A stretch of 64,000 bases of DNA from positions 135-64,134 of the forward strand of contig JAFGHW010000001.1 in assembly GCA_016929895.1 (NCBI GenBank), in the 5' to 3' direction. Under the pieces are notes generated by a model. The model did not search any database and had not been told where the DNA came from. It saw nothing but the letters and a program-made list of their open reading frames with translations. Below, one piece after another: positions 13,095 through 49,447 of the stretch; position 1 is the stretch's first letter, and each line of letters opens with the position of its first letter. The DNA comes from Candidatus Woesearchaeota archaeon (GTDB lineage Archaea > Nanobdellota > Nanobdellia > Woesearchaeales > ARS49). A program made the translations under genes and the position numbers.

Positions 13095-13104
13095 TCTTAC
13101 TATA

Positions 13105-14624: not shown

Positions 14625-14633
14625 TTCGACCTC

Positions 14634-17006: not shown

Positions 17007-18802
17007 ATGTCACCTCTAATTTTAATGTAAACCAATTCCAAAATCAACAAAATTGCGCCAATAACAATCAATGCAAACTCAAAATCATACCTTCTATTTT
17101 CCTTAACCGGCCTAAGCTCGTAATCAATAGATTTTGCGCCAAAACTTATCTTCCTGTTAAGATCAGATTCTAAACTATCCAATAAATTAACAGCAAGCTT
17201 TCTGTCTTCCAGCTCATAAATACCTGCTTCTTCCAGCAAATGAGCAGATTTTTTAATGCTTTTTCTGGACGGCAAAATTATTTTTTGCTTAGAATCCAAA
17301 ATCAACGTATCCTTTGTTTTATAATTCAAATTACTCAATTCCTGCTTGTCTGTCAAGTATTTAATCAATTCAGTCCAAAAAATAGGATAACTGGGCGAAA
17401 ACTTAAAATCAGAAGCAGACTCTAAAAAACCAAAATAAACAATCTTGCCTGCCCCTCTTTCTTCAAGAGCAATCAACGAAGAATTATCAGCACTCACTAA
17501 AGAAACCCCTCTTAAACCCGACACTTTAAAAAAAGAATCAACAGTAGAACCAAAATCAATATTCTTGGTAAAACGATTAACCTGGTCAATTACCAAGTAT
17601 GCTTTTCCCTGTTTTTCGCCTAATTTTAACGGAAGAAGCTCGCCATAATTAATACTGCCTGACTCTTCCTGAGCAACAATAACTGCTGAAGCTCCTTTTT
17701 CAACCTTGCTCAAAACATCCTCAAAAGTTCCAGTAAGAATCTTATTCTGCGCAATATTATGAAAAACATAAACATCATGCTCACCAGTCTTAACAACAGG
17801 CGGACTTGTTATATCCACAGTAACTAACCCAGAAGCATCTAAAGCATTTTTCAAAAAAATAGACTCATTATTTGTTGCCAACAAAACCTTTGTGGTTGCT
17901 TCCTCAGGAGCAGAAACATACAATGTATTATCAACTTCAAAATCATCATTATTAGTAATAACCAATTTAGTCATTCCCTTAGGAATTGTAAAAGAATAAG
18001 GCTCGACAGAATTTCCAGGAATGATTAATTGCTTATTTTCATTATTTACTTTCAAATTAATTGTTTTTTCATCAGTATTAAAATTTTTAATAAATGCTGT
18101 GGCCTGATTATCATCCAAAGACAAATCCACAAAACCGATATTAGATATTTCTTTTTCAGCAACATCAATAAAATCAACAACAATACCCTTAGAAGCCACA
18201 ACATTCTTAGCAACTTCAGGATCCTGGCCGCCAGTATTTTGAAAATCACTAATCACAACAACTCTTCCTTCTGTCAAAGCCTCTCCAGCCAAAATAATTG
18301 CATCGCCCAATCTTGACGGCGTATCCAATGGCTTTAATTTACTTAAAAAATCCCTTGCATCACTGCTAGAAGCTTCTTTCAAAGCAATCAAAGGAATACC
18401 CTTAGCCAAAATCACAGTGTTTTTTGAGCCCAAAGATACTCTTGCTTTTTTAATGGCTTTATCAAATCGGGTTGTTAATCCTTCTTTAGCCTGCATGCTT
18501 GCAGAAACATCAATAACTAAAACAGTATTCTTAGCAGTAATATCATGCGGATAAACAGAATACGGCTTTGCCACAGACAATAAAAGAGCCAAAAGCAACA
18601 ACAACTGGATAATAAACAACCAATCCCTGATAAAATTCCTTAAAAACGACAATAATTTATTCCTGCCATAATGCTTTGAAAAAAACATCAACGAAGGAAT
18701 CTTCAAAGTCTTAGGCCTGGGCCTAATAAGATAAAGCAAAATAAAAGGAATCAATGCTCCTAAAGCTATCAAACCTGCTTTTTCTGCAAAACCAATATGC
18801 AT
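17003..18802 (-). CDS. BatA-like VWA domain protein (aerotolerance-type N-terminal membrane domain).
   Basis: N-terminal LILLYLIRPRPKTLKIPSLMFF BatA-like motif, VLVIDVSASMQ MIDAS and a C-terminal TM helix. Confidence 0.7.
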   Translation of the reverse strand: MHIGFAEKAGLIALGALIPFILLYLIRPRPKTLKIPSLMFFSKHYGRNKLLSFLRNFIRDWLFIIQLLLLLALLLSVAKPYSVYPHDITAKNTVLVIDVSASMQAKEGLTTRFDKAIKKARVSLGSKNTVILAKGIPLIALKEASSSDARDFLSKLKPLDTPSRLGDAIILAGEALTEGRVVVISDFQNTGGQDPEVAKNVVASKGIVVDFIDVAEKEISNIGFVDLSLDDNQATAFIKNFNTDEKTINLKVNNENKQLIIPGNSVEPYSFTIPKGMTKLVITNNDDFEVDNTLYVSAPEEATTKVLLATNNESIFLKNALDASGLVTVDITSPPVVKTGEHDVYVFHNIAQNKILTGTFEDVLSKVEKGASAVIVAQEESGSINYGELLPLKLGEKQGKAYLVIDQVNRFTKNIDFGSTVDSFFKVSGLRGVSLVSADNSSLIALEERGAGKIVYFGFLESASDFKFSPSYPIFWTELIKYLTDKQELSNLNYKTKDTLILDSKQKIILPSRKSIKKSAHLLEEAGIYELEDRKLAVNLLDSLESDLNRKISFGAKSIDYELRPVKENRRYDFEFALIVIGAILLILELVYIKIRGDI

Positions 18803-18860
18803 ATAATATAGTCAAAAATGCTTGTTTAAATACTTTTCTTTTTTTATAAGGAGAAAAAAA

Positions 18861-19859
18861 TTATCCAGTTTTCTTAACCTCAAACTTGGGGTAAACGCCC
18901 GGCTCCATAAAAACCTTGGTTGTTTTAACAGCCAAACCCTTATCAGCTAAGATTATTTCTTCACTAGATAATTTTGCCTTGCCAAAAGCAACTAATTCAT
19001 CTTTCAACGTCATAATCACAACAATATCATCTTTTTTAATATCATCATGAAGCCTGCATACACCTGGAATTTTCAAATCAGCACCATGACAAACAGTATC
19101 AACAGCCAAATCATTAATCCAAACCTTAGAAATATGATTAATCGCAAACTCAATAGGATAAATTATTTTTCTTAATGGCAATTCCTTATTTTCATTTTTA
19201 AAATACCAAAAAGCATCTTTTAAATCCTGCAAATAAACCATATCTTTATCACTAAAAGGGCCTGCTTTTGTTCTGATTAATTGAGCCATATGTGCCCCTG
19301 TATTTAATTTCCTGCCAATATCATGGCAAAGCTTTCTAATATAAGTTCCTGCCTGACAGCCAACCCTGAATAAAATATCCTGCTCTTCAATTTCCATAAC
19401 TTCTAAATAATAAATAGTTCTCTTTCTTAATATTCTTCTAACCGCAGACTTAATTGGAGGAAGTTGCTCGATTTTTCCAATAAATTCTTTTAAAACTTTT
19501 TTTAATAATTTTTCATCAACCTTTTTATGCAAATGCATTATCGCAACATATTCTTTTCCTGCTGGCAAAAGAACTTGAGTAACTCTTGTTGCTCTGTCTA
19601 ATGCAATTGGCAAAACACCAGTAACACCAGGATCCAAAGTACCAGAATGACCTGCTTTTTTTAAATTCAAAATCTTTTTAACATGGTCAGCAACAATATG
19701 AGAAGTCGGACCAGAAGGCTTATTAATATTTACAACACCGTATTCTATTAATTTATTAACAGGTCTTTTATACGGATCTAAACCATAATCAGGATTAGTT
19801 TTGCAAGGTCTTTTAGTTAAAATTTCTCTTTCAATTATTTCAAAAGGAAGTTTAGGCAT
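18861..19859 (-). CDS. cbf5: H/ACA RNP pseudouridine synthase Cbf5 (TruB + PUA).
   Basis: GHSGTLDPGVTGVLPIAL catalytic motif and a C-terminal PUA-like region. Confidence 0.9.
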   Translation of the reverse strand: MPKLPFEIIEREILTKRPCKTNPDYGLDPYKRPVNKLIEYGVVNINKPSGPTSHIVADHVKKILNLKKAGHSGTLDPGVTGVLPIALDRATRVTQVLLPAGKEYVAIMHLHKKVDEKLLKKVLKEFIGKIEQLPPIKSAVRRILRKRTIYYLEVMEIEEQDILFRVGCQAGTYIRKLCHDIGRKLNTGAHMAQLIRTKAGPFSDKDMVYLQDLKDAFWYFKNENKELPLRKIIYPIEFAINHISKVWINDLAVDTVCHGADLKIPGVCRLHDDIKKDDIVVIMTLKDELVAFGKAKLSSEEIILADKGLAVKTTKVFMEPGVYPKFEVKKTG

Positions 19860-20957: not shown

Positions 20958-23900
20958 TTATTTTACTGCCTTGTCAATATCTTCCTTAGACCATCCCTGC
21001 TGTCTTAAACTCTGCCTTATTCTTGGCTCTTTAAAACCCTTGCTTTTTGCGTCCTTAACATATTTTTTCAAAGGAGACAAAACATCAGGTTTTTTCAAAA
21101 ACTTAACATAATAAACCAAAAAGCCCAAAGCAATAGCAGTAGCCAACAAAATAATAATTACAGGAACAAGCCATGCAGGCTTTTCAACACGGCAAGGAGC
21201 ACAAGGGCCTCCGCAATCAATACCTTCTTCGCCTTGGTTTTGAATACCATCAAAACAACTAGCAACAGGCTTGGCAGGAGGAACATATTCTGGAGTACAT
21301 GATTGTGTTTCAGCAGGTTTTTGCAAGATTAAATGACACTCAGGATAATCATTCAAAAAGCAAGTCCTTGTCTGAATACCATTAGCACTGCACGCACTCC
21401 ACGCATTACAAATCCAGTCATCCATGCACTCAGTAACTTCCTGCTCTGCAACTGTCTGCTTATACCAGCTACTTCCGCCGCCACCGCCTCCAGTAGCACC
21501 AGGAGTTCCAGGAGCAGCAGGAGGATAAGAAGGTTCAGGACAAGCACCGCAAGAACCACCACAATCAACACCAGTTTCATCATAGTTCTGAACATTATCA
21601 AAACAATGAGGGAAACTAACAGTAATCACATTAGCGCTATAAACAATATCAACTCTAGGGCCATGCAAGTTAAATACATCTCCCCTGTTTAACACGTCTA
21701 AAGCAACCATAACACCAGTAGCAGAATCGCCAGCAACAACCAACCTGTAAGGATTATGTTGCACTAAAATCAAAGCCCTGCCTGTTGTCAATGCATTACA
21801 TTCTGCGGTTCCAAGAACATTTTCAACCCAGCTGTTATCATTACAAGTTCCTATTAATACTGTATTCAAATTATTAAAATTATTCAAAGAAAGACCTGCA
21901 GGAGGTATTGAATCAGGTATTGAAATCCTATAAGAAGTTATTACAGTTGGCGGGTCCTCACAAACATTTGTGCTAGGATTGCAATAACCAGAAGTACAAT
22001 CCGAATCATCACTGCAAGAATGACCATTAGCCCACGGAGGCGTTGTGTCACATAAATTAGTGTCAGGATTACAATAACCAGAAATACAATCTGAATTATC
22101 AGAACAAGCATAACCAATAGGCCAAGGAGGACCAGTAGCATTACCAACACAGACACAGCCAATACAGTTCTGATTAACAGTGCATTGGTAATCAAACTCG
22201 CATTGCTCACCAACATCAATATTGCCGTCACCACAATACGGTCCTGAAGGCACAGGAACACCACCAAGAGCTATTGCGTCTATTAAAAAATTATAATCTG
22301 CTCCCTCATTATTATAACCTTCACAAGATGCATCAGTTGAAATCATATGGTCAAAACGACCTTCAGTAATATGATCAGGAGCATTCCAGCAAGCATATAA
22401 TTTCTTTGTTCCAGACACTACATCTACAGGGGCATAACCTAATACGCTATACTGATAAGTTTCATCAGGGCAAGAAGTTCCTGAAAAAACAAAATGATCA
22501 ACATAAGTATGACCATCATATCGCTCCTGCCTATAACACTGAGCAACAGGAACAGTATCTGGCTGCTGTTCTTTATACAAATGACCCAACAATCCATCAA
22601 CACTATTTCCTCCGCAATTTGATTCAAAAGATACATAATGGTTTACAACATGGGGGCCGCCAGACCAATGCTGAACCCAGTAACATCTATAGATTGGATT
22701 TGTTTCATACTGCTGGTCCATGCAAACAAAAGTATCTGCATCACAATAACCTGAAACACAAGCAGAATTATCAGTGCAAGAATGGCCATTAAGCCAAGGA
22801 GGAGCAGTGCAAACATTACCTATACAATCAAGACCCTGCACACAATCAGCAGCAATTAAACAAGATTCGCCTTCCTGATTAGGAGCAATAACTGGCTCTA
22901 AAAAATTAAATGAAATGCCTTCATTATCATAACCTTCACAAGCAAAATCAATAGAAACCATATGGTCAAAACGACCATCACTAATATGGTCTGGACGATT
23001 ATGACAGCTATGTACGCCAACAGTATTTGATGCCTCGATTAAAGGGGCATAGCCTAATAAAGAATGAGTGTTCGTACCATCAGGACAACCATTAGAAACA
23101 ACAAAATGGTCAACATAAGTATGATGATCATGTCTTGTATTTCTTATACACTGATACAATGGAACAGTATTTGCCTGCTGATCAGTATACAAATCACCAA
23201 TAAAACCATCAACATGATTGCCCTCGCAATTAGCATTTTCAGACAAATAATGATTAATAACATGAGGGCCGCCAGACCAATGCTGAGACCACCAGCAACG
23301 GTAAACATGATTTCTCTTAGGCAATGGAGAATCAGCACAAAGGCCGCTGCTTTGGTCGCAATAATTAGAACCACAATCTGAATTCAAAGTGCAGGAATGC
23401 CCATTAGGCCAAGGAGCTGAAACACAAACATTATTAAAACAGTCAAGACCGCTTTCACAATCAGAAACAACATTACAAGCTTCTCCTTCTTTAGATTTCG
23501 CGCCCTCTGGCTTTAAAAAATTAAAAATCACATACTCATTATCATAACCTTCACAAAGAACATCTGATGAAACCATATGATCAAAACGACCATCACCTAC
23601 ACTGTCTGGACGATTCCAACACCTATATACTTCTTTTGATTCAGGCACAGCAGTTTCAGGAGCATAACCCAACAAGTTATACTCGTATGATATCTCAGGG
23701 CAAGAAGTTCCTGAAAAAATAAAATGATCAACATAAGTATGACTATCATGCCTTGTCTGCCTATAACATTGAGCAACAGGAACAGTATTCGGCCTTTGTT
23801 CTATATACAAATCACCAACAACACCATCAACAGTATCTCCGCCGCAATCGGGGTCTTCTGATAAGTAATGATTAATAACTGTAGGGCCGCCAGACCAATG

Positions 23901-25388
23901 CTGGTTCCAATAACAACGATAAATAGTTTTTCTTATAGTAGGAGCTGGAGCAGTGCAAATACCTGCAGAACAAGTGGCACAATCAACAATTTCTTCGTTT
24001 ATACCAGAACTAATCCTTTTATTATCACAAAAATATTCATGCAGTTTTCCATTGCTATCACAATAATCTGTTTTAGATTCCTGAGCAATATTACTTGTAG
24101 TAGTTCCCTGAACTAAATGCTCTCTTCCATTATCTGTTTCCTCGCAAAAAGGAAACATATACCATTTGCCTTCAAGAACACTTTCGCTAGGGCAAGCATC
24201 GGCACTTATTTGAAAATGCTCATCCTGCTGTGAATTCAACAAAACAGGTGCGCTGCCAAGCTCAGTTTTACACCTTAATAAAGGAACAGTCCCTGCCTGT
24301 TCATTATGGTAAACATATCCCAAGTCAGCCCTCCATTCAGTTGCAGGGTCGCATTCATTGGCTGCAATTAAATGGTCATCACCAGCAGGCCAATAACAAT
24401 AAACAAGCTTAACAGTATCATCATGCCTATCCTTGAACACATTGCCGAGAACAAACTCCATATTACCTTCAGGACAAGAAGGGCTCGTATGAACATAATA
24501 ATCATTAGCACCATTTGCTTTAGTTCTTTTGCAAACATATAAAGTGGCTTTTTCTTCTGTAACAGGGGCAGCACTAACCTGTTTTATAAAATTAAAAATT
24601 ATATTTTCATTATTATAGCCTTCACAACCTGCAGAAGAAGAATCCATATGGTCCCATCTTCCGTCTCTAACACTATCCGGAGCATTCCAGCACCTGTAAA
24701 TCTTCTTAGTATCAACAGTTTCTGCTGCCGGAGCATAACCTAAAAGTCCATCCAAACTAGTTCCATCAGGGCAATTGCCTGCAACAGTAAAATGGTCAAA
24801 ATAAGTATGACTATCATATCTTGCATTTCTTATACACTGATTAATAACAACTGTATCAGGCTGTTGAGTCTTATACAAATAACCAACCAAACCGTCTGCA
24901 TTATTGCCATCACAATTAGAATTTTTAGACAGATAATGATTAATAACATGAGGGCCGCCAGACCAGTGCTGAGTCCACCAACAACGATAAACAGGGTCTA
25001 CTTCTGAATCAAGAACAACATTTCCAGTAACAAAATTTGCGAAAAAAGAACCAGTAGGAGTGCTAATAACAGTATCACTCATATCATTGCAATCATAACC
25101 TGCGCCATTAACAATCTCGCACATTTTGGTTTGAAGAAGATCATAAAGAATCGTTATATCATAGCTTGAGTCAACAACAATAGCATCTTCAAAAGAAAGA
25201 ATATAATCAACATCATCATCAACTAAAAACTGCTCAGGAAAATCAGACAATTCAGGAATAGATGGAGGTGTGTACGTATGAATTGCTTTACCATAAAATC
25301 TGCTAAACATGCCTGGCTGGTCAGTGCAACCTGCAAGAATGAATAAAGAAATAATCAGAACTGTAAGCAATATATAGTTACTCTTCAT
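20958..25388 (-). CDS. Giant (1476 aa) secreted type I membrane protein: signal peptide, four ~200-aa Cys/Trp-rich repeats (YRCWW.QHWSGGP.VINHYLS...), EGF-like Cys knots (GHSC..NSDC.SGYC) and one Myxococcus-type CGDG..EQC motif. C-terminal TM helix plus a short basic cytoplasmic tail.
   Basis: Single uninterrupted ORF. Repeats visible at protein and DNA level. N-terminal MKSNYILLTVLIISLFILAGC and C-terminal PVIIILLATAIALGFLVYYVKFLKK. Confidence 0.7.
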   Translation of the reverse strand: MKSNYILLTVLIISLFILAGCTDQPGMFSRFYGKAIHTYTPPSIPELSDFPEQFLVDDDVDYILSFEDAIVVDSSYDITILYDLLQTKMCEIVNGAGYDCNDMSDTVISTPTGSFFANFVTGNVVLDSEVDPVYRCWWTQHWSGGPHVINHYLSKNSNCDGNNADGLVGYLYKTQQPDTVVINQCIRNARYDSHTYFDHFTVAGNCPDGTSLDGLLGYAPAAETVDTKKIYRCWNAPDSVRDGRWDHMDSSSAGCEGYNNENIIFNFIKQVSAAPVTEEKATLYVCKRTKANGANDYYVHTSPSCPEGNMEFVLGNVFKDRHDDTVKLVYCYWPAGDDHLIAANECDPATEWRADLGYVYHNEQAGTVPLLRCKTELGSAPVLLNSQQDEHFQISADACPSESVLEGKWYMFPFCEETDNGREHLVQGTTTSNIAQESKTDYCDSNGKLHEYFCDNKRISSGINEEIVDCATCSAGICTAPAPTIRKTIYRCYWNQHWSGGPTVINHYLSEDPDCGGDTVDGVVGDLYIEQRPNTVPVAQCYRQTRHDSHTYVDHFIFSGTSCPEISYEYNLLGYAPETAVPESKEVYRCWNRPDSVGDGRFDHMVSSDVLCEGYDNEYVIFNFLKPEGAKSKEGEACNVVSDCESGLDCFNNVCVSAPWPNGHSCTLNSDCGSNYCDQSSGLCADSPLPKRNHVYRCWWSQHWSGGPHVINHYLSENANCEGNHVDGFIGDLYTDQQANTVPLYQCIRNTRHDHHTYVDHFVVSNGCPDGTNTHSLLGYAPLIEASNTVGVHSCHNRPDHISDGRFDHMVSIDFACEGYDNEGISFNFLEPVIAPNQEGESCLIAADCVQGLDCIGNVCTAPPWLNGHSCTDNSACVSGYCDADTFVCMDQQYETNPIYRCYWVQHWSGGPHVVNHYVSFESNCGGNSVDGLLGHLYKEQQPDTVPVAQCYRQERYDGHTYVDHFVFSGTSCPDETYQYSVLGYAPVDVVSGTKKLYACWNAPDHITEGRFDHMISTDASCEGYNNEGADYNFLIDAIALGGVPVPSGPYCGDGNIDVGEQCEFDYQCTVNQNCIGCVCVGNATGPPWPIGYACSDNSDCISGYCNPDTNLCDTTPPWANGHSCSDDSDCTSGYCNPSTNVCEDPPTVITSYRISIPDSIPPAGLSLNNFNNLNTVLIGTCNDNSWVENVLGTAECNALTTGRALILVQHNPYRLVVAGDSATGVMVALDVLNRGDVFNLHGPRVDIVYSANVITVSFPHCFDNVQNYDETGVDCGGSCGACPEPSYPPAAPGTPGATGGGGGGSSWYKQTVAEQEVTECMDDWICNAWSACSANGIQTRTCFLNDYPECHLILQKPAETQSCTPEYVPPAKPVASCFDGIQNQGEEGIDCGGPCAPCRVEKPAWLVPVIIILLATAIALGFLVYYVKFLKKPDVLSPLKKYVKDAKSKGFKEPRIRQSLRQQGWSKEDIDKAVK
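22300..25050 (-). repeat. Internal tandem coding repeats (4 units, ~600 nt each) within the giant surface-protein gene.
   Basis: Recurrent near-identical peptide blocks (HWSGGP, YRCWN.PDS..DGR.DHM, NF[IL]). Mirrored by repeated spurious opposite-strand ORFs beginning MINNMRAARP at ~23.1, 23.9 and 24.8 kb. Confidence 0.5.
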
Positions 25389-25509: not shown

Positions 25510-25974
25510 TTAGGTTTTCTTCGGTTCTTTTTTCTCTACTGGTTTTGCCTTGGGTTTCTCTTGCATTACCTTTGGTTCAGATTCTTCTGCTTTAGGCGTT
25601 TCTATGATTTTCTTTTGCTCAATCTTGGGCGCAGACTTTTCTTTGGTTTTCTTTTCTTCCTTTGTTTTGGCTGGTTTCTTTTTACCCTTAACTTCTTTTT
25701 TCTTTTCTTCAGGAGCGCCAACCAATTCAGCAGTTACAATACCCTTGTCATCCTTTTTAACATTAATTCTAATCCTGCATGGGGGATTTTTCATTCCATG
25801 CTTCCACAACTCCTTATTAAGATACTTCCCAATCTTAACATTTTTTTCATCAGCCTTCATATGCTTAATCAAGAAAGCTTTGACTGCATTAACTGCCTTT
25901 TTAGCTCGCCTGTATCGCGGAGCTTTTTGCCATTCCTTTCTTAACGGAATTGTGTAAGTTCGTTCAATTGCCAT
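25510..25974 (-). CDS. rpl31e: 50S ribosomal protein L31e with a ~70-aa Lys/Glu-rich C-terminal extension.
   Basis: RTYTIPLRKEW..APRYRRAKKAVNAVKAFLIKHMK...ELWKHGMKNPPCRIRINV matches L31e. The tail is KKEVKGKKKPAKTKEEKK... Confidence 0.8.
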   Translation of the reverse strand: MAIERTYTIPLRKEWQKAPRYRRAKKAVNAVKAFLIKHMKADEKNVKIGKYLNKELWKHGMKNPPCRIRINVKKDDKGIVTAELVGAPEEKKKEVKGKKKPAKTKEEKKTKEKSAPKIEQKKIIETPKAEESEPKVMQEKPKAKPVEKKEPKKT

Positions 25975-26365
25975 CTTCTGCCTTTAGAACCTCATTCATT
26001 CCTGAATAAATCATAGATTCAATACTTTCAAACTTGTCAATAGTATCGATTATTGAATCATCTTTTGCATACTTAGAATCAAGCCAACAACTTAACAACT
26101 TTGCCTTTGCATTAAGAACTCTATCTCCTGTTTTTGCAGAATATCTAACTACATCACCTGCAATACAAAAAGCAATATCACCCACGGAAAACATTTTTCC
26201 TGAAATAATTTCCCCGCCTAAATCACTCATTCTATCTACAACAAAATCCTGCAAAAACGCATTTCTGCTAACAGGCGCTTTTGAATCTCTTGAAAAAAAA
26301 TATTCAAAATCAGTATCTTGTTCACGTTCTTCCATTATCCCGCCTATATCCGCCAAACAATACAT
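25964..26365 (-). CDS. Hypothetical protein (133 aa) inserted between L39e and L31e.
   Basis: Co-oriented ORF with tight coupling: start 26365 vs L39e stop 26368; its end overlaps the L31e start. No family recognised. Confidence 0.4.
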   Translation of the reverse strand: MYCLADIGGIMEEREQDTDFEYFFSRDSKAPVSRNAFLQDFVVDRMSDLGGEIISGKMFSVGDIAFCIAGDVVRYSAKTGDRVLNAKAKLLSCWLDSKYAKDDSIIDTIDKFESIESMIYSGMNEVLKAEDGN

Positions 26366-26367
26366 GT

Positions 26368-26541
26368 TTACACCTTTAACTTAGTTCTTCTCCATGAACG
26401 CTTAACCTTGGTATGCCTTCCAGGATGAACACGTCTTCCTTTGCCGTATTTCTTAGGAACAGTCCAAAAAGGAGCCCAACGAGTACGGCGAGCTCTTTTA
26501 ATCAAACGCTTTTTCCTTGCCAAATGCTTGTATCTCGCCAT
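26368..26541 (-). CDS. rpl39e: 50S ribosomal protein L39e (57 aa), missed by the ORF track.
   Basis: Manual translation: MARYKHLARKKRLIKRARRTRWAPFWTVPKKYGKGRRVHPGRHTKVKRSWRRTKLKV. Matches the L39e consensus (..RR.P.W...K......HP.RR.WRRTKLK). Confidence 0.7.
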   Translation of the reverse strand: MARYKHLARKKRLIKRARRTRWAPFWTVPKKYGKGRRVHPGRHTKVKRSWRRTKLKV

Positions 26542-26542
26542 T

Positions 26543-27211
26543 TTATTTGCCAGATTCCTCTTGAGTTTTATTTTCAGATTGTTTTTCCAAACTTTCTTTT
26601 TTCTCTTCTTTAACTTCTTTTGATTCAGGTTCCTTTTCGGGCATTATTTTTTTAACTTCATTTTTAACAACTTTTTTCTTAACAGCCTTCTTTTTTCTCT
26701 TCTTAACTTTTCTTTTCTTTTTCTTTTTAACAACATTAGTAAATCTCAATTCTTCCTCAGGCCTCTTAGGAATAACAATATTTGATTCTTTCATAATAGA
26801 AATAGCAACCTTATTCAGCAATTTATCGCCGTCAGGAGTAACAATTCTTCCTTTATGAACGCCTTTTTCGTCTTTTTTAACAAAACCTGCTTTTTCCAAC
26901 TGCTGCAAAACCTTTCTAATAATAGAACCAGAACCTTTATAGAAATGCTCAGGCCTGTAACCCCTATTTTTTCTGCCGCCGTATTTTATCCTTAACTTTT
27001 GAGTGCCAATAGGACCTTTAATCTTAATTGCCCTTAAAACTGCTGCTGCACGAACATACCACCAATCCTTTTGAACAGGAGGCCTTTCCTTATGCATTCC
27101 TGTCTTGCAAAACAAACTCCACTCAGGAGACTTGATAGAGTCAACAGTTTTCAGTTCTTCAGCTAACTTCAAAATAAATTCATTTATAGGCACATCAAAT
27201 ATATTTCCCAT
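26543..27211 (-). CDS. rps19e: 30S ribosomal protein S19e with a Lys-rich C-terminal extension.
   Basis: SPEWSLFCKTGMHKERPP..DWWYVRAAAVLR...GP.G...L...YGGRKNRGYRPEHFYKGSGSIIRKVLQQLEKAG is the S19e signature. The tail is KKKKKRKVKKRKKK... Confidence 0.85.
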   Translation of the reverse strand: MGNIFDVPINEFILKLAEELKTVDSIKSPEWSLFCKTGMHKERPPVQKDWWYVRAAAVLRAIKIKGPIGTQKLRIKYGGRKNRGYRPEHFYKGSGSIIRKVLQQLEKAGFVKKDEKGVHKGRIVTPDGDKLLNKVAISIMKESNIVIPKRPEEELRFTNVVKKKKKRKVKKRKKKAVKKKVVKNEVKKIMPEKEPESKEVKEEKKESLEKQSENKTQEESGK

Positions 27212-27343
27212 AATTATAACCTCGCGGTTTACAATGAAAGTCTTTTCGATCTTTCAGATGAGTATTAGAATTCATTGATTGTTTATAAAGGTTATGGAAA
27301 TGTATGCATTTGTGTAACCTCAAAAATCTTTGATTTTTGATGG

Positions 27344-27943
27344 TTATGGTTTGTATTTTCTAAAACCCTTAAAACCAGTAACATAAGAACATTCAACTTT
27401 TGCTTTTTGAAACTTTTTGGTTCTTGAATTCCAGTAATAGGCGGATGTTAAAAAATTAAAATTATTAATAGAACCAAACAAATCTCCTTTTTTGGTCTGT
27501 TTTGGAGCAAACCATTTATTTTTGAATAATGATGTTATTATATAAATATAATTTCTATTTTTTTCCATGCTTTTCAAATCATAATCACTATATCTTGCAT
27601 TATAAATAAGATTATTCAAAACTTCATCCAATGTCTTTGGTCGTTTATCGTAATCATATCCTTTTTTTAGTATATGCGAATGAAAATCACCTATATATTT
27701 TGCGTCGGCTAAACGAGATACTAGATTCATAACTCTTTCATCTCGTTTTTCATTGGGCGACACTTCCTTGCTCCTTCGTTGAGCTGTCAAGGAAGGCAAA
27801 ATAAATTCAGGGATAAATCTCTCATTTCCAGAAGTTCTAGAAGTCTTGTCACCAAATAAAAGACCATAATATTCTTCTGGGTAAGATTCGATGGCTGGAA
27901 TTAATAAATGAATAAATTGATAATACTTAATAATTAGCTTCAT
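27344..27943 (-). CDS. JAB/MPN-like protein with a degenerate JAMM motif (E...GLLFG ... FHSH; the downstream Ser/Asp are not canonical).
   Basis: Pattern resemblance only (EEYYGLLFG, IGDFHSHILKKGYDYD). Overlaps the upstream nuclease gene by 4 nt. Confidence 0.3.
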   Translation of the reverse strand: MKLIIKYYQFIHLLIPAIESYPEEYYGLLFGDKTSRTSGNERFIPEFILPSLTAQRRSKEVSPNEKRDERVMNLVSRLADAKYIGDFHSHILKKGYDYDKRPKTLDEVLNNLIYNARYSDYDLKSMEKNRNYIYIITSLFKNKWFAPKQTKKGDLFGSINNFNFLTSAYYWNSRTKKFQKAKVECSYVTGFKGFRKYKP

Positions 27944-28941
27944 TCTTTTCTATCCTCCCAATATACTTCAATTTTTTGTTCTAATTCCTCTGGAGAAAGA
28001 ATTAAATTTTGGTTTCTTGCATCTTCATATTCTTTTACAACACCTTCTAAACAAAAATCATAATAGTCACAAAAAGTACAGCCATAATTAACATTTCGTT
28101 CAAAAATACCTTTCTCAATAACTTCGGTTGCTTTACAAAGAGAATTTTCCAATAAATCATAATCCTTTTGGATTTTTCTAACAGGAACAAGAGGATTTGC
28201 ATTAATATCTTTAGCAAGAGTTCTTACATGCAGAAGATATCTGCCAACAATTTCATATTGTGGAAACAATTCTGCTAAAGCCAAATCATAAATAGTAAAT
28301 TGATGGCCTGGATGGCGCAAAACCATTAAATCGTCAGGAGTTGCCTTTCTTTTATCTGTCTTATAATCAAAAAAAACAATTCCGTTGTTGTGCCTGTCAG
28401 TCCTATCAATATTCCCTCTGATTGAATAACCGCGAAACTTAATCCTGAAATTCAATTCAACTTTTGGAAATAAATTCAAACTATTCAAAAATTTCTTTTT
28501 TTTCTTTGCTTTAGCACTTAATAATTTTGCTCCTCTTAAAGCAGAAATTCTTTGCTCTTCGAGTCTTTGTCTTCTATGAATATCCCTCTTATAAAAACTA
28601 GTTAAAATTCTTGTTCCAAGACCTTTGTAATACCCAAAAATATGATTTCTTGCTTTTTCATCTGCGACTTTTACTATTCCTATTCTTTTATTATTATTTT
28701 CTCTTATTTCATACCAATATCTCTTCCAATAATTAATAAAAGATTCTTCTGACTTGAAATTATTGTTATAAAACAATTCGAGCATTCTATGAATCGCGAT
28801 ACCAAATGCAAATTTGAAATTAGTCGGAATTTCTATATCTTTTCTAAGATAACAAAATTCATAATACTTATGGCATTTAGCAATTGCACTTAGTTTAGTT
28901 GCACTGAAAACTAATTTATTAGATTTTCTTGTCTTGGGCAC
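27940..28941 (-). CDS. Cas4-like PD-(D/E)xK nuclease with a 4-Cys Fe-S cluster motif (RecB-family nuclease domain).
   Basis: N-terminal Cys (AKCHKYYEF), RecB motifs GNIDRTD and VFFDYKTDK, and C-terminal CTFCDYYDFC. No CRISPR array or other cas genes nearby. Confidence 0.65.
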   Translation of the reverse strand: MPKTRKSNKLVFSATKLSAIAKCHKYYEFCYLRKDIEIPTNFKFAFGIAIHRMLELFYNNNFKSEESFINYWKRYWYEIRENNNKRIGIVKVADEKARNHIFGYYKGLGTRILTSFYKRDIHRRQRLEEQRISALRGAKLLSAKAKKKKKFLNSLNLFPKVELNFRIKFRGYSIRGNIDRTDRHNNGIVFFDYKTDKRKATPDDLMVLRHPGHQFTIYDLALAELFPQYEIVGRYLLHVRTLAKDINANPLVPVRKIQKDYDLLENSLCKATEVIEKGIFERNVNYGCTFCDYYDFCLEGVVKEYEDARNQNLILSPEELEQKIEVYWEDRKE

Positions 28942-29048
28942 TAATCATCACTCCCACGCCACTATTAATAAAACATCATTTATAAATATTCTGACTAAAA
29001 TGAATATTTTCGACATATTTAAATACAAAACCGTTCTATCTAATACTC

Positions 29049-30761
29049 ATGGATCCCAAACAAGAGAAGACAAGGCACAGTGCAGCACACATACTTGCAT
29101 ATGCCATACAAGAACTTTATCCTGATGCAAAGAATACAATAGGGCCTCCTGTGGAAGAAGGATTTTATTATGACTTTGAGAATTTAAACATTACTCCTGC
29201 TGATTTTCCAAAAATAGAATCAAAGATGAAAGAAATAATCAAAGCAAACTATTCTTTTAAGAAAAAAACAGCAACACTTCCTGAAATAAAAAAAATATTC
29301 AAAGAAAACAAATATAAAATAGAAATGGCAGAGGAATTCAAAAAACAAAAAGAAAAACTAACAATTTATTCCTGCGGAAAATTCAGCGACTTATGCAGAG
29401 GACCGCATGTCAAATCAACAGGACAAATAAAAGCAATAAAACTAACAAAAATAGCAGGAGCCTACTGGAGAGGAGATGTTAAGAACAAACAATTAACAAG
29501 ATTATACGGCATTGCATTTGAAACAGAAAAAGAAATGAAAACTCATTTACAATTATTAGAAGAAGCATCCAAAAGAGACCACAGAAAAATAGGAAAAAAT
29601 CTGGAACTATTTTCTTTTCACGAAGAAGCGCCAGGAATGCCTTTCTGGCATGCAAAAGGAACAATCATATGGAATGAATTATTAAAATATTGGAGAGAAG
29701 AACACAAAAAAGACGGATATGAAGAAATAAGAACACCAGTAATCCTGAACAAAAAATTATGGCTGCTGTCAGGACACTGGGAGCATTACAAAGAAAACAT
29801 GTATTTTACAAAAGTAGACGAGCAAGACTATGCATTAAAACCAATGAACTGCCCAGGAGGAATACTTGTCTACAAAAACCGCGTAAGAAGCTATAAAGAA
29901 CTTCCTCTGCGAATGGCAGAGATAGGACTTGTCCACAGACATGAGCTAAGCGGAGTGCTAGCTGGACTATTAAGAGTAAGAGCATTTAACCAAGATGACG
30001 CGCACATTTACTGCATTCAAGAAACACTAAAACAAGAACTAAAAAAAGTGATACAGCTGTCTGACAGAATATACAAAAAATTCGGGTTCCAATACAATGT
30101 TGAATTAAGCACAAAACCAGAAAAAGCAATGGGCGACCCAAAATTATGGGAAAAAGCAGAAAAAGAATTAGCCGCCGCACTGGATGAATTAAAAATGAAA
30201 TACAAAATAAACCCTGGCGACGGAGCATTTTACGGACCAAAAATAGATTTTCACCTAAAAGATGCGCTGGGAAGAACATGGCAGTGCGGAACATTACAAT
30301 TAGACTTTCAAATGCCAATTAAGTTTAATTTGAAATACATGGGAGAAGATGGAACACAAAACCATCAGCCAATAACCCTGCACAGAACAATTTATGGAAG
30401 CATAGAAAGATTCATAGGAATACTATTAGAGCACACAGGAGGAAAACTGCCTCTATGGATATCACCAATACAAGTAAGAATATTAACAGTAGCAGACAGA
30501 TTTAATGAATACGCAGAAAAAATAATAAAACAAATGGATGAACAGGGTATAAGAGCAGAACTAGATGGCCGCACAGAAAGCATTGGCAAAAAAGTCCGAG
30601 AAGCACAACTGCAAAAAATAAATTATATTTTAGTAGTTGGAGAAAGAGAACTAAGCGAAGGAACAGTAACAATCAGAACAGTAGACAACAAAATCCAAGG
30701 CGCAAAAAAAATAGACACATTCATAAAACAAGTTGTTAAGGAGATTACAGAACGCAAATAA
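29049..30761 (+). CDS. thrS: Threonine--tRNA ligase (class II), lacking an N-terminal TGS domain.
   Basis: HSAAHILA (N2/editing-domain motif), RDHRKIGKNLELF, class II motifs and a C-terminal anticodon-binding domain. Confidence 0.85.
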   Translation: MDPKQEKTRHSAAHILAYAIQELYPDAKNTIGPPVEEGFYYDFENLNITPADFPKIESKMKEIIKANYSFKKKTATLPEIKKIFKENKYKIEMAEEFKKQKEKLTIYSCGKFSDLCRGPHVKSTGQIKAIKLTKIAGAYWRGDVKNKQLTRLYGIAFETEKEMKTHLQLLEEASKRDHRKIGKNLELFSFHEEAPGMPFWHAKGTIIWNELLKYWREEHKKDGYEEIRTPVILNKKLWLLSGHWEHYKENMYFTKVDEQDYALKPMNCPGGILVYKNRVRSYKELPLRMAEIGLVHRHELSGVLAGLLRVRAFNQDDAHIYCIQETLKQELKKVIQLSDRIYKKFGFQYNVELSTKPEKAMGDPKLWEKAEKELAAALDELKMKYKINPGDGAFYGPKIDFHLKDALGRTWQCGTLQLDFQMPIKFNLKYMGEDGTQNHQPITLHRTIYGSIERFIGILLEHTGGKLPLWISPIQVRILTVADRFNEYAEKIIKQMDEQGIRAELDGRTESIGKKVREAQLQKINYILVVGERELSEGTVTIRTVDNKIQGAKKIDTFIKQVVKEITERK

Positions 30762-38572: not shown

Positions 38573-39030
38573 ATAAAAAAATAATATTTTTAATTATAGT
38601 GATTTTATTAGCCGCGCTTGTTTACGGCGGAGTTAGAACACCAACAACACCGTGGTATGAAGTAGAAGAATGGGAAATAGAAGTCTGCTCAAAATTCGCC
38701 GGAAACACTGCTCCTGAAAATGCAGAAACAGAAACTGGATTTGCCGCGTACGGAACAACAAGCATGACAATACAAGCATACAAAACAAATCTGGGCGATG
38801 AAAACTTCTATGAAGTATATTATTACATCGAACCATATGAAGAAACACAACAATATATTTTACAATTAGTTAATGAAAACCAAAAACTGAATTATGAAAT
38901 AGCATCAGGCACAATAGGAATAAATGCAGGAGTTGCAGATTATTACACAAATTATTCAACACAAAACTTTAATGAAGTGCGATTAGTGCACAAATACGGA
39001 GCATTCAAGGTTCCGATAATAGAAAGATGA
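38566..39030 (+). CDS. Membrane-anchored small protein B (N-terminal TM, Tyr/Glu-rich ectodomain).
   Basis: ORF overlapping neighbours by 7 nt and 4 nt (translational coupling). Confidence 0.4.
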   Translation: MLNKKIIFLIIVILLAALVYGGVRTPTTPWYEVEEWEIEVCSKFAGNTAPENAETETGFAAYGTTSMTIQAYKTNLGDENFYEVYYYIEPYEETQQYILQLVNENQKLNYEIASGTIGINAGVADYYTNYSTQNFNEVRLVHKYGAFKVPIIER

Positions 39031-41483
39031 AAACAAATAAAGCCAATGCCGCGCCACGTTATGGAAGCAAAGCACAAGTAACACTATTTATTATCCTTGG
39101 AATAATTATTTTACTTGCATTAGGATTAGGAATATACTTTGCAACAAAAGTAATTATCAAGCCAAAAATGCCGGCGACAGAAACCGCGATACAAGAATAT
39201 GTCCAGGAATGCATAAAACAAACAGCAATAATCGCGCTAAAAAAAATAGGGGACAATGGAGGATATATTTCATTTGAAAACAAATACAGAGAATTTAATT
39301 TACAAACAGAACCAGCAGAAGGAGACGGGCTGCCAATCTCTGAAATAGAACTGTACTCAATACCCTGCTGGTGGTATATGAAAACACCAAACCAATGCAA
39401 CAACTGCTATTTAACATCAGACAATATGCCATTACTTCCAGAAATAGAAGAACAAATCAATGAGTATGTTGCTAACAATTTAAACATATGCATTAAAGGA
39501 TTTGCGCCGTTCACTAACCAATACACAATCAAAACAAAACAAGAACCAATAATAGAAACACAAATCACAAAAGACTCAATAAGAATAACTTCTGAATACC
39601 CTATAGAAATCTCAAAAGCAGGGCAAACAACAAAAATAAAAGACTTTGAAACAGAAATAAATGTAAAATTCAAGGACATATATGATTTGGCCACTGAAAT
39701 AATAAACCTGGAAAAAGAAAAATCAGTAATTGAAGAAAGAATAATGCACATGCTGAGCGCGCATATGGGCGCGTCTTATGACAAACTGCCGCCAATATCA
39801 GAAATAACACACGACTATTATCTAATCACATGGGCGAAAGAAATAGTAAAAATAAAAATACAACAAACACTAAACAGTTACATGCCATTGCTTAGATTTT
39901 ACGGAACAAAAAACTCCAAAGAAATAAACTCAAAAAACAAATACACAAAAGGATTTTACAATGCAATGCAAATAAATGACCTCAACAAAAAATACAACTT
40001 ATTTTTAGACATATCCTATAATGACTGGCCGATTTATTTTTCAATAAACCCAGAACCATTAACAGGAACATATCACAAACAAAACTTCCCATATGACATA
40101 CTCCCGCCAATACAAACAAATACATATGAATTTTATTACGACCTGTCTATCCCGCTTTTATTCCAAATAAGAGACTCAAACGCATTTGGAGGAGAAGGAT
40201 ATACTTTGAATTTTGCAGTAGAAACAAACATAAGAGACAATAAAAACCCAAACAACTGGAATATCGGACAAGGAACATTAGGACCATGGGATTCAAGCAA
40301 AACAAAACAAGAAACACTAATAATCAACAGAACATCAGGCAAATGCACTGAAACAGCAGGAAAATACCAATGCAGTATTGACAACAAAAAATACGAAACA
40401 ATAACACAATGCACAGAAATGTGCTACACAGAAAAAAGAATAAGCCAAACAAAAAAAATATTTAAAACAGAGTTCTGCTCTGCTGAACAAAAACTAAGCG
40501 GAAAAATAAAAATAATCGTAAAATCAGGGCAAGAAAAAATAGAAACCGCAGGAATAAGCTACCGCTGCGGAAATTATAAAACCTGTTCTATAGGAATTAC
40601 CGACGAGAACGGAGAAGCAGAATTCCAACTGCCAATCTGCTATGGCGGAGCATTATCAGTACACAAACCAGGATATAAAACTGAAAAAGTTTCATTAAAC
40701 ACAGAAATAAACAAAGCAGAAATAATCAATTTTGACTTGAAAAAAGAAAAAGAATTCACAGTCAGCTTTAAAAAAATGCCTATAACTTCAACAGAAACAA
40801 AAAATGGAATAGAAGCAAGCTGCTGCGACAAAAAACAAAACCCTATTTCAACACAAAAAGCAACATTGAGCATAGAAAAAGTCAAAGAAAATCCTATTGA
40901 CACCTCGTTTGTACAAGCAATTGTTATTGACCAAGATTCAAAAATAAAATTAGTCCCGGGAAAATACAAAGTAACAATGCAATACCTTGACGAAATAGGA
41001 ATAGTAATCCCAGCAGAATGCAAATCAGTCTGCATAGAAGAAAAACAAAACAACGCAATCAAAGCATGCAGCACCGCATGCAAGGAAAACACAGAAATAA
41101 GCAAAACCAGCTGCAAAATAATATTCCCATTAAAACCAGAATGGTGCGAAGACCTGGACTTTGCAAAACAACAATGCGAAGAACACTGCGCAAAAACAGA
41201 ATGCAAAAAATGGATGAAACTGCCTGAAGAAGACATGAACATCAGGCCGGCTTTATTAGGCGGAGCAATGATTGATTCTGAAAACGGATACTGGATTGTT
41301 ACAGAAGCAGACATAAACTCAGGACTCACCAATATCAATTTTTACGTTCTAGAAGTACCAACGCCAACATGCCTTGATACAACAGGATGTGCATACCCGC
41401 CATGCATAGGATTAGACGAAATAGGAAAAATAAAAGAATATTCTGACTTATTCAGACAAGAATTAGAACCAGTATTTAGCTAA
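39027..41483 (+). CDS. Large (818 aa) surface protein P1 with a class III (type IV pilin-like) signal-peptide-like N-terminus and a carboxypeptidase-regulatory-like beta-sandwich motif. Paralogue of P2 and P3.
   Basis: N-terminal ...RYGSKA|QVTLFIILGIIILLALGLGIYF. Conserved blocks GDNGGYI, PCWWYM, GGEGYTLNFA, and TDENGEAEFQLPICYGGALSVHKPGYK. Confidence 0.55.
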   Translation: MKTNKANAAPRYGSKAQVTLFIILGIIILLALGLGIYFATKVIIKPKMPATETAIQEYVQECIKQTAIIALKKIGDNGGYISFENKYREFNLQTEPAEGDGLPISEIELYSIPCWWYMKTPNQCNNCYLTSDNMPLLPEIEEQINEYVANNLNICIKGFAPFTNQYTIKTKQEPIIETQITKDSIRITSEYPIEISKAGQTTKIKDFETEINVKFKDIYDLATEIINLEKEKSVIEERIMHMLSAHMGASYDKLPPISEITHDYYLITWAKEIVKIKIQQTLNSYMPLLRFYGTKNSKEINSKNKYTKGFYNAMQINDLNKKYNLFLDISYNDWPIYFSINPEPLTGTYHKQNFPYDILPPIQTNTYEFYYDLSIPLLFQIRDSNAFGGEGYTLNFAVETNIRDNKNPNNWNIGQGTLGPWDSSKTKQETLIINRTSGKCTETAGKYQCSIDNKKYETITQCTEMCYTEKRISQTKKIFKTEFCSAEQKLSGKIKIIVKSGQEKIETAGISYRCGNYKTCSIGITDENGEAEFQLPICYGGALSVHKPGYKTEKVSLNTEINKAEIINFDLKKEKEFTVSFKKMPITSTETKNGIEASCCDKKQNPISTQKATLSIEKVKENPIDTSFVQAIVIDQDSKIKLVPGKYKVTMQYLDEIGIVIPAECKSVCIEEKQNNAIKACSTACKENTEISKTSCKIIFPLKPEWCEDLDFAKQQCEEHCAKTECKKWMKLPEEDMNIRPALLGGAMIDSENGYWIVTEADINSGLTNINFYVLEVPTPTCLDTTGCAYPPCIGLDEIGKIKEYSDLFRQELEPVFS

Positions 41484-42145
41484 GAAATTTCCTGAATATC
41501 TGAAATAATAAAACAATTATTCCTAACATTTGCAGAAACAATATTCTCGCAATATTCTTTGTTTGACTGGCCAAAAAAGAAAAAACAATTGTCCCTGATA
41601 TCTGAATTTACTATTTGATTGCAGGCATTTGCATTATCAGAATTCTTTGCAACCAGAGAAATACATTCATCACTATTTTCCAAAAGACTGCACTGTTCTA
41701 ATGCAGATTGCGGATTAGAATTACTAAGCTCGCGAATCTCTTCCAAGGTTTTGGACGGGATAGCTTCTGTTTTTTTAACAAATTCTTTTTCAACAATTTT
41801 TTCCTCTATTTCTTCTTCAACATACGGCTCAGAAGGAGCAGCAGGCCTTTCGGACGGAACAGCAATCCATTTCTGCGCTTGTGTTTGTTTTTCAACAGGA
41901 ACCTTTACTAATTCTTCTGCAGGACGAATAAAAGAAATAAAAACCAAACCAACAATAACAAGAATTATTGCAATAATCAATAAAATCGAAAAAGAAATCA
42001 AAAAAGAACGCCTCTTAGCCCTGACGTCTTCCAAAGCCTGCTCAATCTGATAAGAAGAAAAACCCCTTTTCATAAGCTCAAGCTTTAATTCAGGCAAAGG
42101 CATGCCAGAATGCTTTTTAACATAATCCAACAAAGCTCTATCCAT
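41480..42145 (-). CDS. Single-pass membrane protein with a Cys-rich C-terminal domain (opposite strand, inside the cluster).
   Basis: ORF track. TM helix FLISFSILLIIAIILVIVGLVFISFI. Repeated C...N..C spacing at the C-terminus. Confidence 0.4.
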   Translation of the reverse strand: MDRALLDYVKKHSGMPLPELKLELMKRGFSSYQIEQALEDVRAKRRSFLISFSILLIIAIILVIVGLVFISFIRPAEELVKVPVEKQTQAQKWIAVPSERPAAPSEPYVEEEIEEKIVEKEFVKKTEAIPSKTLEEIRELSNSNPQSALEQCSLLENSDECISLVAKNSDNANACNQIVNSDIRDNCFFFFGQSNKEYCENIVSANVRNNCFIISDIQEIS

Positions 42146-42176
42146 ACAAGAATGATTAATCAGTTGTTATAAATAT

Positions 42177-42593: not shown

Positions 42594-42697
42594 AACTCCA
42601 CTAAAAAGTGTACAAAATATAAATCTTACTATTCACTCATAAAAAACAGTTAAATTTAAATACCCTAATTCTAAAATACCCAATATATAGTGATATG

Positions 42698-42797
42698 TCA
42701 AGAACCACCATTCGAATACAGGTGGTATGATAATTTGACTTTGCATCGAGTGGTTCTTGATGCTCAGGATTTCATCAATCTGGCGGTTCTTGAGCAC
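42698..42797 (+). promoter_or_regulatory. Array of three copies of a TGG[T/C]GGTTCTTGA motif (one inverted) plus a 6-bp hairpin, in the divergent intergenic region upstream of P2.
   Basis: tcaagaaccacca (42698-42710, inverted), tggttcttga (42751-42760), tggcggttcttga (42781-42793). TATA-like taaatataaa and AAGGAGGT SD precede the ATG at 42865. Confidence 0.3.
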
Positions 42798-42864
42798 AAC
42801 ATATTCCACTTAAATATAAACTAACAGATTGGTGGAATCCTGTTGTTAGAAAAAGGAGGTATTA

Positions 42865-48356: not shown

Positions 48357-48396
48357 AAAAATTTGGGGCAAATTTTTTTGTGTTCATAATAAAATT

Positions 48397-49446: not shown

Positions 49447-49447
49447 A

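Follow-up and report, generated by a model that had tools for sequence, protein, structure and literature searches.

An overlapping gene pair encoding a Cas4-like nuclease and a JAMM/MPN+ protease homologue, a candidate DNA-repair-type operon of a small Woesearchaeota clade

Two overlapping genes were analysed in a contig of a Candidatus Woesearchaeota archaeon (JAFGHW010000001.1); the window is the whole stretch of this contig that was studied (64,000 nucleotides, 64 kb). Both genes are carried by the minus strand. The upstream gene encodes a stand-alone PD-(D/E)xK nuclease that resembles Cas4 and AddB and is predicted to hold an iron-sulfur (Fe-S) cluster; the downstream gene encodes a homologue of the JAMM/MPN+ (JAB) metalloproteases. 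The nuclease is identical to NCBI protein P0001, 'PD-(D/E)XK nuclease family protein [Candidatus Woesearchaeota archaeon]'. The JAB protein, of 199 amino acids (aa), is identical to P0006, which is named 'hypothetical protein JW851_00185'. A first-pass annotation of this DNA had described a two-gene pair with an overlap of 4 nucleotides and a series of motif strings; the open reading frames (ORFs) of the minus strand contain all of them, at the coordinates that had been given. The pair seems to be an inherited module of DNA-repair type, not a remnant of a defence system or mobile element. The features of the locus are as follows.

27940..28941, minus strand: gene of the Cas4/AddB-like Fe-S PD-(D/E)xK nuclease; 333-aa ORF with a GTG start; PF12705, E=3.4e-20.
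27344..27943, minus strand: gene of the JAMM/MPN+ (JAB) metalloprotease homologue; 199-aa ORF; Prok-JAB, 20.6 bits.
27940..27943, minus strand: ATGA overlap of the nuclease stop codon and the JAB start codon, read from the sequence; the genes of relatives overlap or abut too.
28942..29048, unstranded: divergent intergenic region of 107 bp, common to the pair and thrS, read from the sequence.
27315..27346, minus strand: AT-rich hairpin of 14 bp that contains the JAB stop codon and has a T5 run in its 3' arm.

The overlap measures 4 nucleotides: positions 27940-27943 are tcat on the plus strand, hence ATGA when read from the minus strand. The same length is found in one relative (locus L001), and 17 nucleotides are shared by the two genes in two others (L002 and L004). 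The ATGA overlap suggests translational coupling of the nuclease and JAB genes. In the divergent intergenic region, a Shine-Dalgarno-like GGAGTGA precedes the GTG start of the nuclease gene, and TATA-like A/T-rich boxes were found on reading the sequence (TTTATAAATA, at about 28990); the assignment of these boxes as promoters is putative. The pair had also been reported to be flanked by a hairpin terminator. The hairpin itself is well supported (-12.9 kcal/mol, z=-6.2; 0 of 200 shuffled sequences equally stable). Its status as a conserved terminator was rejected since no equivalent was found at the matching position in four relatives (L001, L002, L003 and L050); a scan for terminators (G+C-rich stem followed by a T run) returned 0 sites within 26500-29500. 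The hairpin is kept as a possible candidate for the transcript end.

Seven loci carry this nuclease subfamily: the window, L001 to L004, L049 and L050. The JAB gene lies directly downstream of the nuclease gene, overlapping or abutting it, in all seven. The upstream, divergent gene is thrS in 6/6 loci with an upstream flank (L050 begins inside the nuclease gene), and the gene downstream of the pair is that of S19e in the window, L001 and L003, the three loci whose downstream sequence is long enough. The genes found around the pair are housekeeping ones: L31e, S19e, thrS, PTH2, exosome RNase PH subunits, proteasome, SBDS, S6e, Cbf5, NOG1 GTPase and endonuclease V. The pair was thus found in a conserved housekeeping neighbourhood within the small clade that carries it, an arrangement that the first-pass annotation had named as counting against its own proposal. 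Homologous pairs, which it had suggested to look for in other archaea and in viruses, were found at other Woesearchaeota loci and not in viruses; a search for further loci with the nuclease alignment gave none in GTDB genomes and, in JGI metagenomes, no more than two short contigs. Between relatives, the products of thrS, S19e and PTH2 are 70-85% identical (thrS 75-83%), the nuclease 53-58% and the JAB protein 46-54%, which corresponds to a divergence about twice as fast for the pair. With 70-85% identity in the flanks and 46-58% in the pair, the latter evolves faster than its neighbours, yet it has been kept whole at a single place in the chromosome.

Between the L31e and S19e genes, the window carries a 133-aa ORF (25964-26365, minus strand) that has no Pfam match. 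Unannotated ORFs of 148 aa (L001) and 144 aa (L003) are found at the matching position.

The nuclease had been described as bearing the full Cas4 signature. Its motif strings are present (AIAKCHKYY, which includes C23; GNIDRTD; DYKTDK; CTFCDYYDFC), and nine residues (C23, D179, D192, K194, Q214, Y218, C288, C291 and C297) do not vary among five homologues of 53-58% identity. The Cys and RecB motifs of the signature are thus confirmed; the attribution to Cas4 itself is not, as detailed below. The corresponding features, all on the minus strand, are the following.

28873..28875, minus strand: C23 codon, N-terminal Cys of the predicted four-Cys cluster; invariant in 5 homologues; coordinates taken from the ORF.
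28477..28569, minus strand: conserved Lys-rich segment with 'LLSAKAKKKK', about residues 125-155; it follows the N-terminal helices and precedes the nuclease core.
28360..28407, minus strand: catalytic core D179...D192-Y-K194 (GNIDRTD...FFDYKTDK), PD-(D/E)xK motifs II and III; invariant; within the PF12705 match.
28288..28302, minus strand: Q214-x3-Y218 (HQFTIYDLA), RecB-family QhxxY motif; both residues invariant.
28051..28080, minus strand: C288-x2-C291-x5-C297, C-terminal Cys of the AddB/Cas4-type cluster; invariant; aca is minus-strand TGT at 28078-28080 and 28051-28053.

Cysteines arranged as C...C-x2-C-x5-C make up the 'iron staple' known from AddB, Cas4 and Dna2. In the window protein, the four Cys presumably bind an Fe-S cluster, as predicted from their arrangement. 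The PF12705 (PDDEXK_1) match reaches 73.5 bits for a cutoff of 22 and covers profile positions 2-246 of 247; four homologues all carry a precomputed PF12705 assignment. PHROGs returned phrog_69, 'exonuclease' (4.7e-15). The TIGR00372 cas4 score is 23.2 bits for a cutoff of 65, and no PF01930 match was found in the Pfam scan at E<=1. The protein is called Cas4-like and not Cas4 because the curated Cas4 model is not reached; the PADLOC Cas4 models match it weakly (1.3e-5 to 2.6e-3), and its best NCBIfam partial matches are AddA/AddB-type nuclease domains (about 70 residues, 17-22 bits). By its motifs it is a Cas4/AddB-type enzyme, and by curated models a PF12705 member rather than Cas4 proper. 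No relative was found by sequence in the PDB, either with the single protein or with the small subfamily profile. In the Lys-rich segment, L140, L141, S142, A143, K144, A145, K148 and K149 are invariant. This segment falls in a long helix of a low-confidence AlphaFold2 model and would be an extra element beyond the minimal Cas4.

The second protein had been proposed to be JAB/MPN-like, with downstream Ser and Asp that were regarded as non-canonical, and so to be possibly inactive. The motif strings EEYYGLLFG and GDFHSH were confirmed. Its features are given below.

27872..27874, minus strand: E24 codon, JAMM general-base glutamate; invariant in 79 sequences.
27674..27682, minus strand: H88-S-H90, JAMM zinc-ligand histidines (minus-strand CAT TCG CAT); H88 invariant, H90 in at least 90% of 79.
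27590..27673, minus strand: subfamily-specific insertion of 28 residues that separates HxH from SxxD; from spacing counts and alignments.
27578..27589, minus strand: S119-D-Y-D122, JAMM SxxD (oxyanion Ser and third zinc ligand, Asp; AGT GAT TAT GAT); D122 invariant, S119 in at least 90% of 79.

Relatives of the JAB protein were collected with a profile searched exhaustively against 1.84 billion representatives, which gave 127 proteins of 160-230 aa, 79 of which were aligned. In this alignment E24, G31, G85, H88 and D122 never vary, and G27, H90, S119 and G157 are conserved in at least 90% of members; a C-terminal extension (W...GxLxG...AY...CP) is also conserved in the family. The profile of the 79 sequences matches 2KKS in the PDB at 1.9e-11, and also BRCC36, Rpn11, CSN5, PfJAMM1 and AMSH; no relevant match was obtained in PDB searches with the single protein or with the small subfamily profile. 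Taken alone, the window protein scores 20.6 bits with Prok-JAB, below the gathering cutoff of 25; Prok-JAB (PF14464) is matched by 66 of the 79 family members and JAB (PF01398) by 40. An hhalign comparison of the window subfamily with a Prok-JAB-positive subfamily from candidate phyla radiation (CPR) bacteria gave 98.7% probability with the catalytic residues aligned, and blastp returned a Nitrospirae 'Mov34/MPN/PAD-1 family protein' (1.5e-18). The 199-aa protein is therefore a JAB/MPN homologue, as had been supposed; the homology is secure, and a JAB (deaminase-like) fold is predicted from it.

The non-canonical appearance of the downstream Ser and Asp is due to an insertion and not to a loss, because 28 residues, instead of 7-12, separate HxH from SxxD. 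S119-x-x-D122 is conserved and only displaced. The spacing varies across the family (12 residues in 115 proteins, 7 in 29, 13 in 24, and up to 34), and the textbook H-x-H-x7-S-x-x-D is present in many members. The JAMM active site is thus complete, split by the insertion, and the enzyme is probably active; the suspicion of inactivity is not upheld, as the catalytic residues are conserved over the 79 members and the spacing alone differs. No RadC (PF04002) match is listed for the JAB protein in one hmmscan at E<=1, in which matches weaker than about E=0.1 are mostly filtered out, nor is RadC among the families of the 79 members. As to possible ubiquitin-like (Ubl) partners, the window contains no genuine ORF of 50 aa or more with a C-terminal Gly-Gly, and ThiF, ThiS and MoaD are absent among the 25 listed of the 47 Pfam families of the window. 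A Ubl encoded by a third gene was considered and rejected: the 89-aa ORFs beside the JAB gene in L003 and L053 are mutually unrelated and have no Gly-Gly tail.

In GTDB, the JAB family ranges over CPR bacteria, Nitrospirota, Edwardsbacteria, Promethearchaeota, Bathyarchaeia, Methanosarcinales, Aenigmatarchaeota, Nanoarchaeia and other Woesearchaeota. Several of its members adjoin genes of DNA enzymes. In a Yanofskybacteria-like CPR clade (L007, L012 to L015), the JAB gene is followed on the same strand, with short gaps, by the gene of a 243-aa PF12705 nuclease (CxxC...CxxC). A protein of about 480 aa (weak Cas4, DUF2779, RNase_H_2) completes a conserved trio in three of these loci (L012, 4947-8840; L014, 3992-6889; L015, 2590-5899). 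As the CPR loci are partly syntenic, they were counted as one lineage. Membership of the Woesearchaeota and CPR nucleases in a same subfamily was considered and rejected, since their hhalign alignment covers only the N-terminal Cys region, with 5% probability. In a Bathyarchaeia locus (L029, 3995-5738), JAB is followed by Mrr_cat (Mrr-type restriction fold). Of the relatives that bear the insertion, the two nearest to the window protein have such neighbours as well: one lies directly beside a tyrosine recombinase gene (L051, 5001-6554), and the other belongs to a tight same-strand run with the gene of a helix-hairpin-helix (HhH)-GPD Fe-S glycosylase, one 89-aa ORF lying between them (L053, 196-1795; also L054). 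These recurring neighbours, nucleases and other DNA enzymes from a handful of lineages, are suggestive of a DNA-related role of the JAB family.

The window and related loci were also examined for hallmarks of mobile elements and defence. Neither protein has any relative in IMG/VR, among INPHARED phages or among PLSDB plasmids. No tandem array of suitable period for clustered regularly interspaced short palindromic repeats (CRISPR) was found in the window. PADLOC, run on 50 window proteins, returned no cas or defence-system gene other than the weak Cas4 match of the nuclease itself, and the flanks of L001 to L004 contain no cas gene. Within the sensitivity of these scans, the nuclease is thus rightly described as a stand-alone Fe-S-type PD-(D/E)xK enzyme lacking a CRISPR context. 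The JAB protein has a weak PADLOC match (0.037); there is no system-level match, and no partner gene (E1, E2 or cyclase) accompanies the pair. No integrase or tRNA gene is found nearby, and the only repeats are of low complexity, none of them bounding the pair. Fixed synteny, the lack of viral or plasmid relatives and the lack of arrays, repeats and tRNA genes together argue against an origin from a mobile element or a defence island.

The reading that is favoured is that of a vertically inherited chromosomal two-gene operon of one small Woesearchaeota clade, whose Fe-S Cas4/AddB-type nuclease and active JAMM hydrolase act jointly in DNA-end processing or repair; its probability, for inheritance and joint function together, is put at about 0.5. 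The analysis itself establishes the domain identities, the conservation of the catalytic residues, the gene overlap, the constant syntenic position and the lack of hallmarks of mobility or defence. The two proteins, coupled physically or functionally, would be co-expressed and would cooperate in the processing of DNA ends, in repair or in recombination. The nuclease would resect or trim DNA, like other solo Cas4/AddB-like enzymes. Its JAMM partner would hydrolyse a peptide-like or extended substrate tied to DNA processing, or would regulate the nuclease. The option of a solo Cas4 repair nuclease, already raised in the first-pass annotation, fits this evidence.

Several observations weigh against this reading. 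The clade is narrow, with seven known loci. The pair has a G+C content of 0.29, about 2 standard deviations below the mean of the window genes (0.353 +/- 0.029). The AlphaFold2 models provide no evidence on fold or interface (predicted local distance difference test scores of 39.9 for the nuclease, from a 5-sequence alignment, and 43.9 for the JAB protein, from a 4-sequence alignment). The biochemically characterised JAMMs cleave Ubl tails and not DNA-linked substrates (PMC3239186, Iyer et al. 2011). The Woesearchaeota and CPR nucleases have no blastp similarity, only a common PF12705 match. Most neighbours of the JAB family are unrelated to DNA nucleases: nusA is directly downstream of JAB in four or five CPR loci (L016, L017, L019, L033; also L009/L010), an amino-acid permease gene adjoins it in one Methanosarcinales and one Woesearchaeota locus (L031, L043), and other neighbours encode FAD oxidoreductases (Nitrospirae-type loci), OTCase, ELP3-like, HD and PHP proteins and an M1 peptidase. 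Since the neighbours of most members are unrelated, the JAB family is not obligately tied to nucleases and the pair could be an operon of convenience.

The composition of the pair, a check of which had been recommended, was compared with that of the window genes; G+C proved low and codon usage typical. Both G+C and G+C at third codon positions (0.20-0.22) are the lowest in the neighbourhood. Codon usage gives a Kullback-Leibler divergence of 0.21-0.25, and other window genes are equally AT-rich. A foreign origin deduced from composition was rejected on these two grounds: the low G+C content is not counted as evidence of transfer. Low G+C and faster divergence are consistent with weaker constraint rather than with foreign origin.

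In an operon of convenience, a housekeeping JAMM isopeptidase or peptidase, which would for example remove SAMP/ThiS/MoaD-type tags like PfJAMM1 and HvJAMM1, would merely be co-transcribed with an independent solo Cas4-like repair nuclease. This is a possible but rather doubtful explanation. It agrees with the wide distribution of the JAB family and its mostly unrelated neighbours, with the profile matches to PfJAMM1, Rpn11 and CSN5, and with the fact that the characterised JAMMs are all Ubl-specific peptidases (PMC3239186). Adjacency in 7/7 loci, and overlap in all four relatives in which both genes were called, speak against it, as do the independent adjacency to a nuclease gene in CPR bacteria (in the opposite order), the Mrr neighbour in Bathyarchaeia and, for the 64 kb of the window, the lack of a small Gly-Gly-ending ORF. 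In favour of a catalytically dead JAB scaffold are the unusual spacing (28 instead of the canonical 7) and the Prok-JAB score of the single protein, below cutoff. Loss of the catalytic residues is typical of inactive MPN- domains, Rpn8 for example. Here three of these residues (E24, H88, D122) do not vary in the 79 diverse members and the other two (H90, S119) are kept in at least 90% of them, in a family whose spacing itself varies; a dead scaffold is thus improbable. The joint action could also take a more specific form, a module for the repair of DNA-protein crosslinks or of covalent intermediates: the protease would shorten a protein or peptide attached to DNA, and the strand end that bears the adduct would be cut off by the nuclease. 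This proposal, which is distinctly unlikely as it stands, is made because the neighbours in the insertion-bearing branch and its relatives include enzymes that cleave DNA or become covalently linked to it as intermediates: a tyrosine recombinase, an HhH-GPD Fe-S glycosylase, and Mrr-type and PF12705 nucleases.

Defence and mobility were the other possibilities raised at first, in the form of a small remnant. In an anti-virus or anti-plasmid module, the Cas4-like nuclease would be the effector and the JAB protein would control it or counteract a modification, as in cyclic-oligonucleotide-based antiphage signalling systems (CBASS; Cap3) or Bil-type systems. Known defence systems contain Cas4-family nucleases as well as JAB domains; the weak PADLOC matches of the two proteins (Cas4, 1.3e-5 at best), the twofold faster evolution than the flanks and the lower G+C content point in the same direction, and defence was left open for solo Cas4 in small genomes (PMC5704561, Hudaiberdiev et al. 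2017). Such a module is nevertheless unlikely: PADLOC gives no system-level match, E1, E2, cyclase and other partners are lacking, the pair occupies the fixed thrS-S19e position wherever the flank suffices and not a variable island, homologues from mobile elements or viruses are absent, and solo cas4 genes are under ordinary purifying selection, with no arms-race signal (PMC5704561). The remnant of a mobile element or virus integrated beside the ribosomal-protein cluster is highly improbable, and this reading is largely refuted. The lower G+C content and the frequency of PF12705 nucleases in phages (PMC5704561; see also the phrog_69 match) would fit it. They are outweighed by the occurrence of the pair at the same site in lineages whose thrS products are only 75-83% identical, by the absence of integrase genes, tRNA genes, direct or inverted bounding repeats and viral, phage or plasmid relatives, and by the retention of catalytic residues and typical codon usage.

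A fixed, coupled partner would give a concrete handle on the open role of the solo Cas4-like nucleases, which are over-represented in DPANN archaea and CPR bacteria (PMC5704561). If the JAMM protein works jointly with the nuclease, DNA metabolism in organisms with minimal repair repertoires would be linked to a protease family whose only known activity is Ubl-tail cleavage; if they act separately, the pair would be a lineage-specific operon of two ordinary enzymes. The crosslink-repair module, if true, would extend a DNA-repair role to JAB domains outside the RadC clade and would provide small-genome archaea and CPR bacteria with their own repair route. Whatever function is proposed for the JAB family must be compatible with the recurrent nusA and permease contexts, which are not DNA-related. 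As regards annotation, the JAB protein is named hypothetical at NCBI and falls below the curated Pfam threshold, yet its active site is complete.

Three other regions of the window were noted. A 1476-aa protein (20958-25388, minus strand) has an N-terminal signal-like segment, a C-terminal membrane anchor and four long internal Cys/Trp-rich repeats (YRCWW.QHWSGGPHVINHYLS...); it has no Pfam match at 1e-5, and its gene shows the highest local G+C content (0.39-0.44). Six large same-strand ORFs (39027-57792, plus strand) encode proteins of 818, 726, 1104, 366, 875 and 1865 aa. Four of the five that were scanned have no Pfam match at 1e-5; the exception is the 1865-aa protein, with Ig-like or Glucodextran_B matches. 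This run may be a surface or appendage gene cluster. The cluster at about 11141-19859 (minus strand) includes a MoxR-type AAA_3 ATPase, DUF58, VWA and BatA/DUF7407/DUF7408; it is an ordinary Bat/MoxR-like operon, unusual only for a small-genome archaeon.

Most DPANN archaea, Woesearchaeota included, carry solo Cas4 without CRISPR, mostly by vertical inheritance; the solo versions of CPR and DPANN group together, and the Cas4-like proteins of PF12705 are not CRISPR-associated (PMC5704561). Repair or defence was proposed for solo Cas4, whose cellular role is still open (PMC5704561). That paper makes no mention of JAB or MPN, and full-text literature searches for a link between Cas4 and JAB, or between JAMM and PD-DExK, returned nothing relevant. 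A solo Cas4-like nuclease is therefore already known in the phylum, and an overlapping JAMM partner was not found described in the literature. For JAB proteins, nucleic-acid-related roles were inferred from gene context for RadC-type and some archaeal clades (PMC3239186).

The window nuclease resembles the solo Cas4/PF12705 nucleases of DPANN and CPR in that it is stand-alone, has the C...CxxCx5C arrangement, belongs to a small-genome archaeon, is vertically inherited and lacks CRISPR. It differs from solo Cas4 in that it scores with PF12705, not with PF01930/COG1468, and stays below the TIGR00372 cutoff. It is also longer than a typical Cas4 (333 aa; the Pfam and TIGR models have 160-180 positions), carries the conserved Lys-rich insert and is always followed by the JAMM gene. 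With the nuclease domains of AddB, RecB and Dna2 it shares the catalytic motifs and the 'iron-staple' arrangement of Cys; unlike these enzymes, it has no helicase domain, and no helicase gene immediately adjoins the pair. The JAB protein is like the stand-alone JAMM/MPN+ proteases (2KKS; 2KCQ; PfJAMM1, 5LDA; AfJAMM, 1R5X; Caldiarchaeum Rpn11-like, 6FJU) in having a single domain with the E...HxH...SxxD zinc site. The solved stand-alone chains have about 120-230 aa, and the JAB family profile matches them at 1.9e-11 to 3e-5 (AfJAMM, about 0.02-0.03). The window subfamily is distinguished from them by its 28-residue insert, the C-terminal extension of the family, its nuclease partner and the lack of a visible Ubl or E1 nearby. 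As in RadC-type and other nucleic-acid-related JAB clades (PMC3239186), a JAB domain is placed among DNA-metabolism proteins by its gene context; RadC differs in being bacterial and usually HhH-fused, and its nuclease or DNA role is itself only an inference. No description of the CPR neighbourhood in which JAB is followed by PDDEXK_1 and then by the Cas4/DUF2779-RNaseH-like protein was found in the literature. It is like the window pair in that the same JAB family stands directly beside a PF12705 nuclease; the window pair differs from it by the opposite gene order and a different nuclease subfamily, and the CPR JAB has a spacing of 12.

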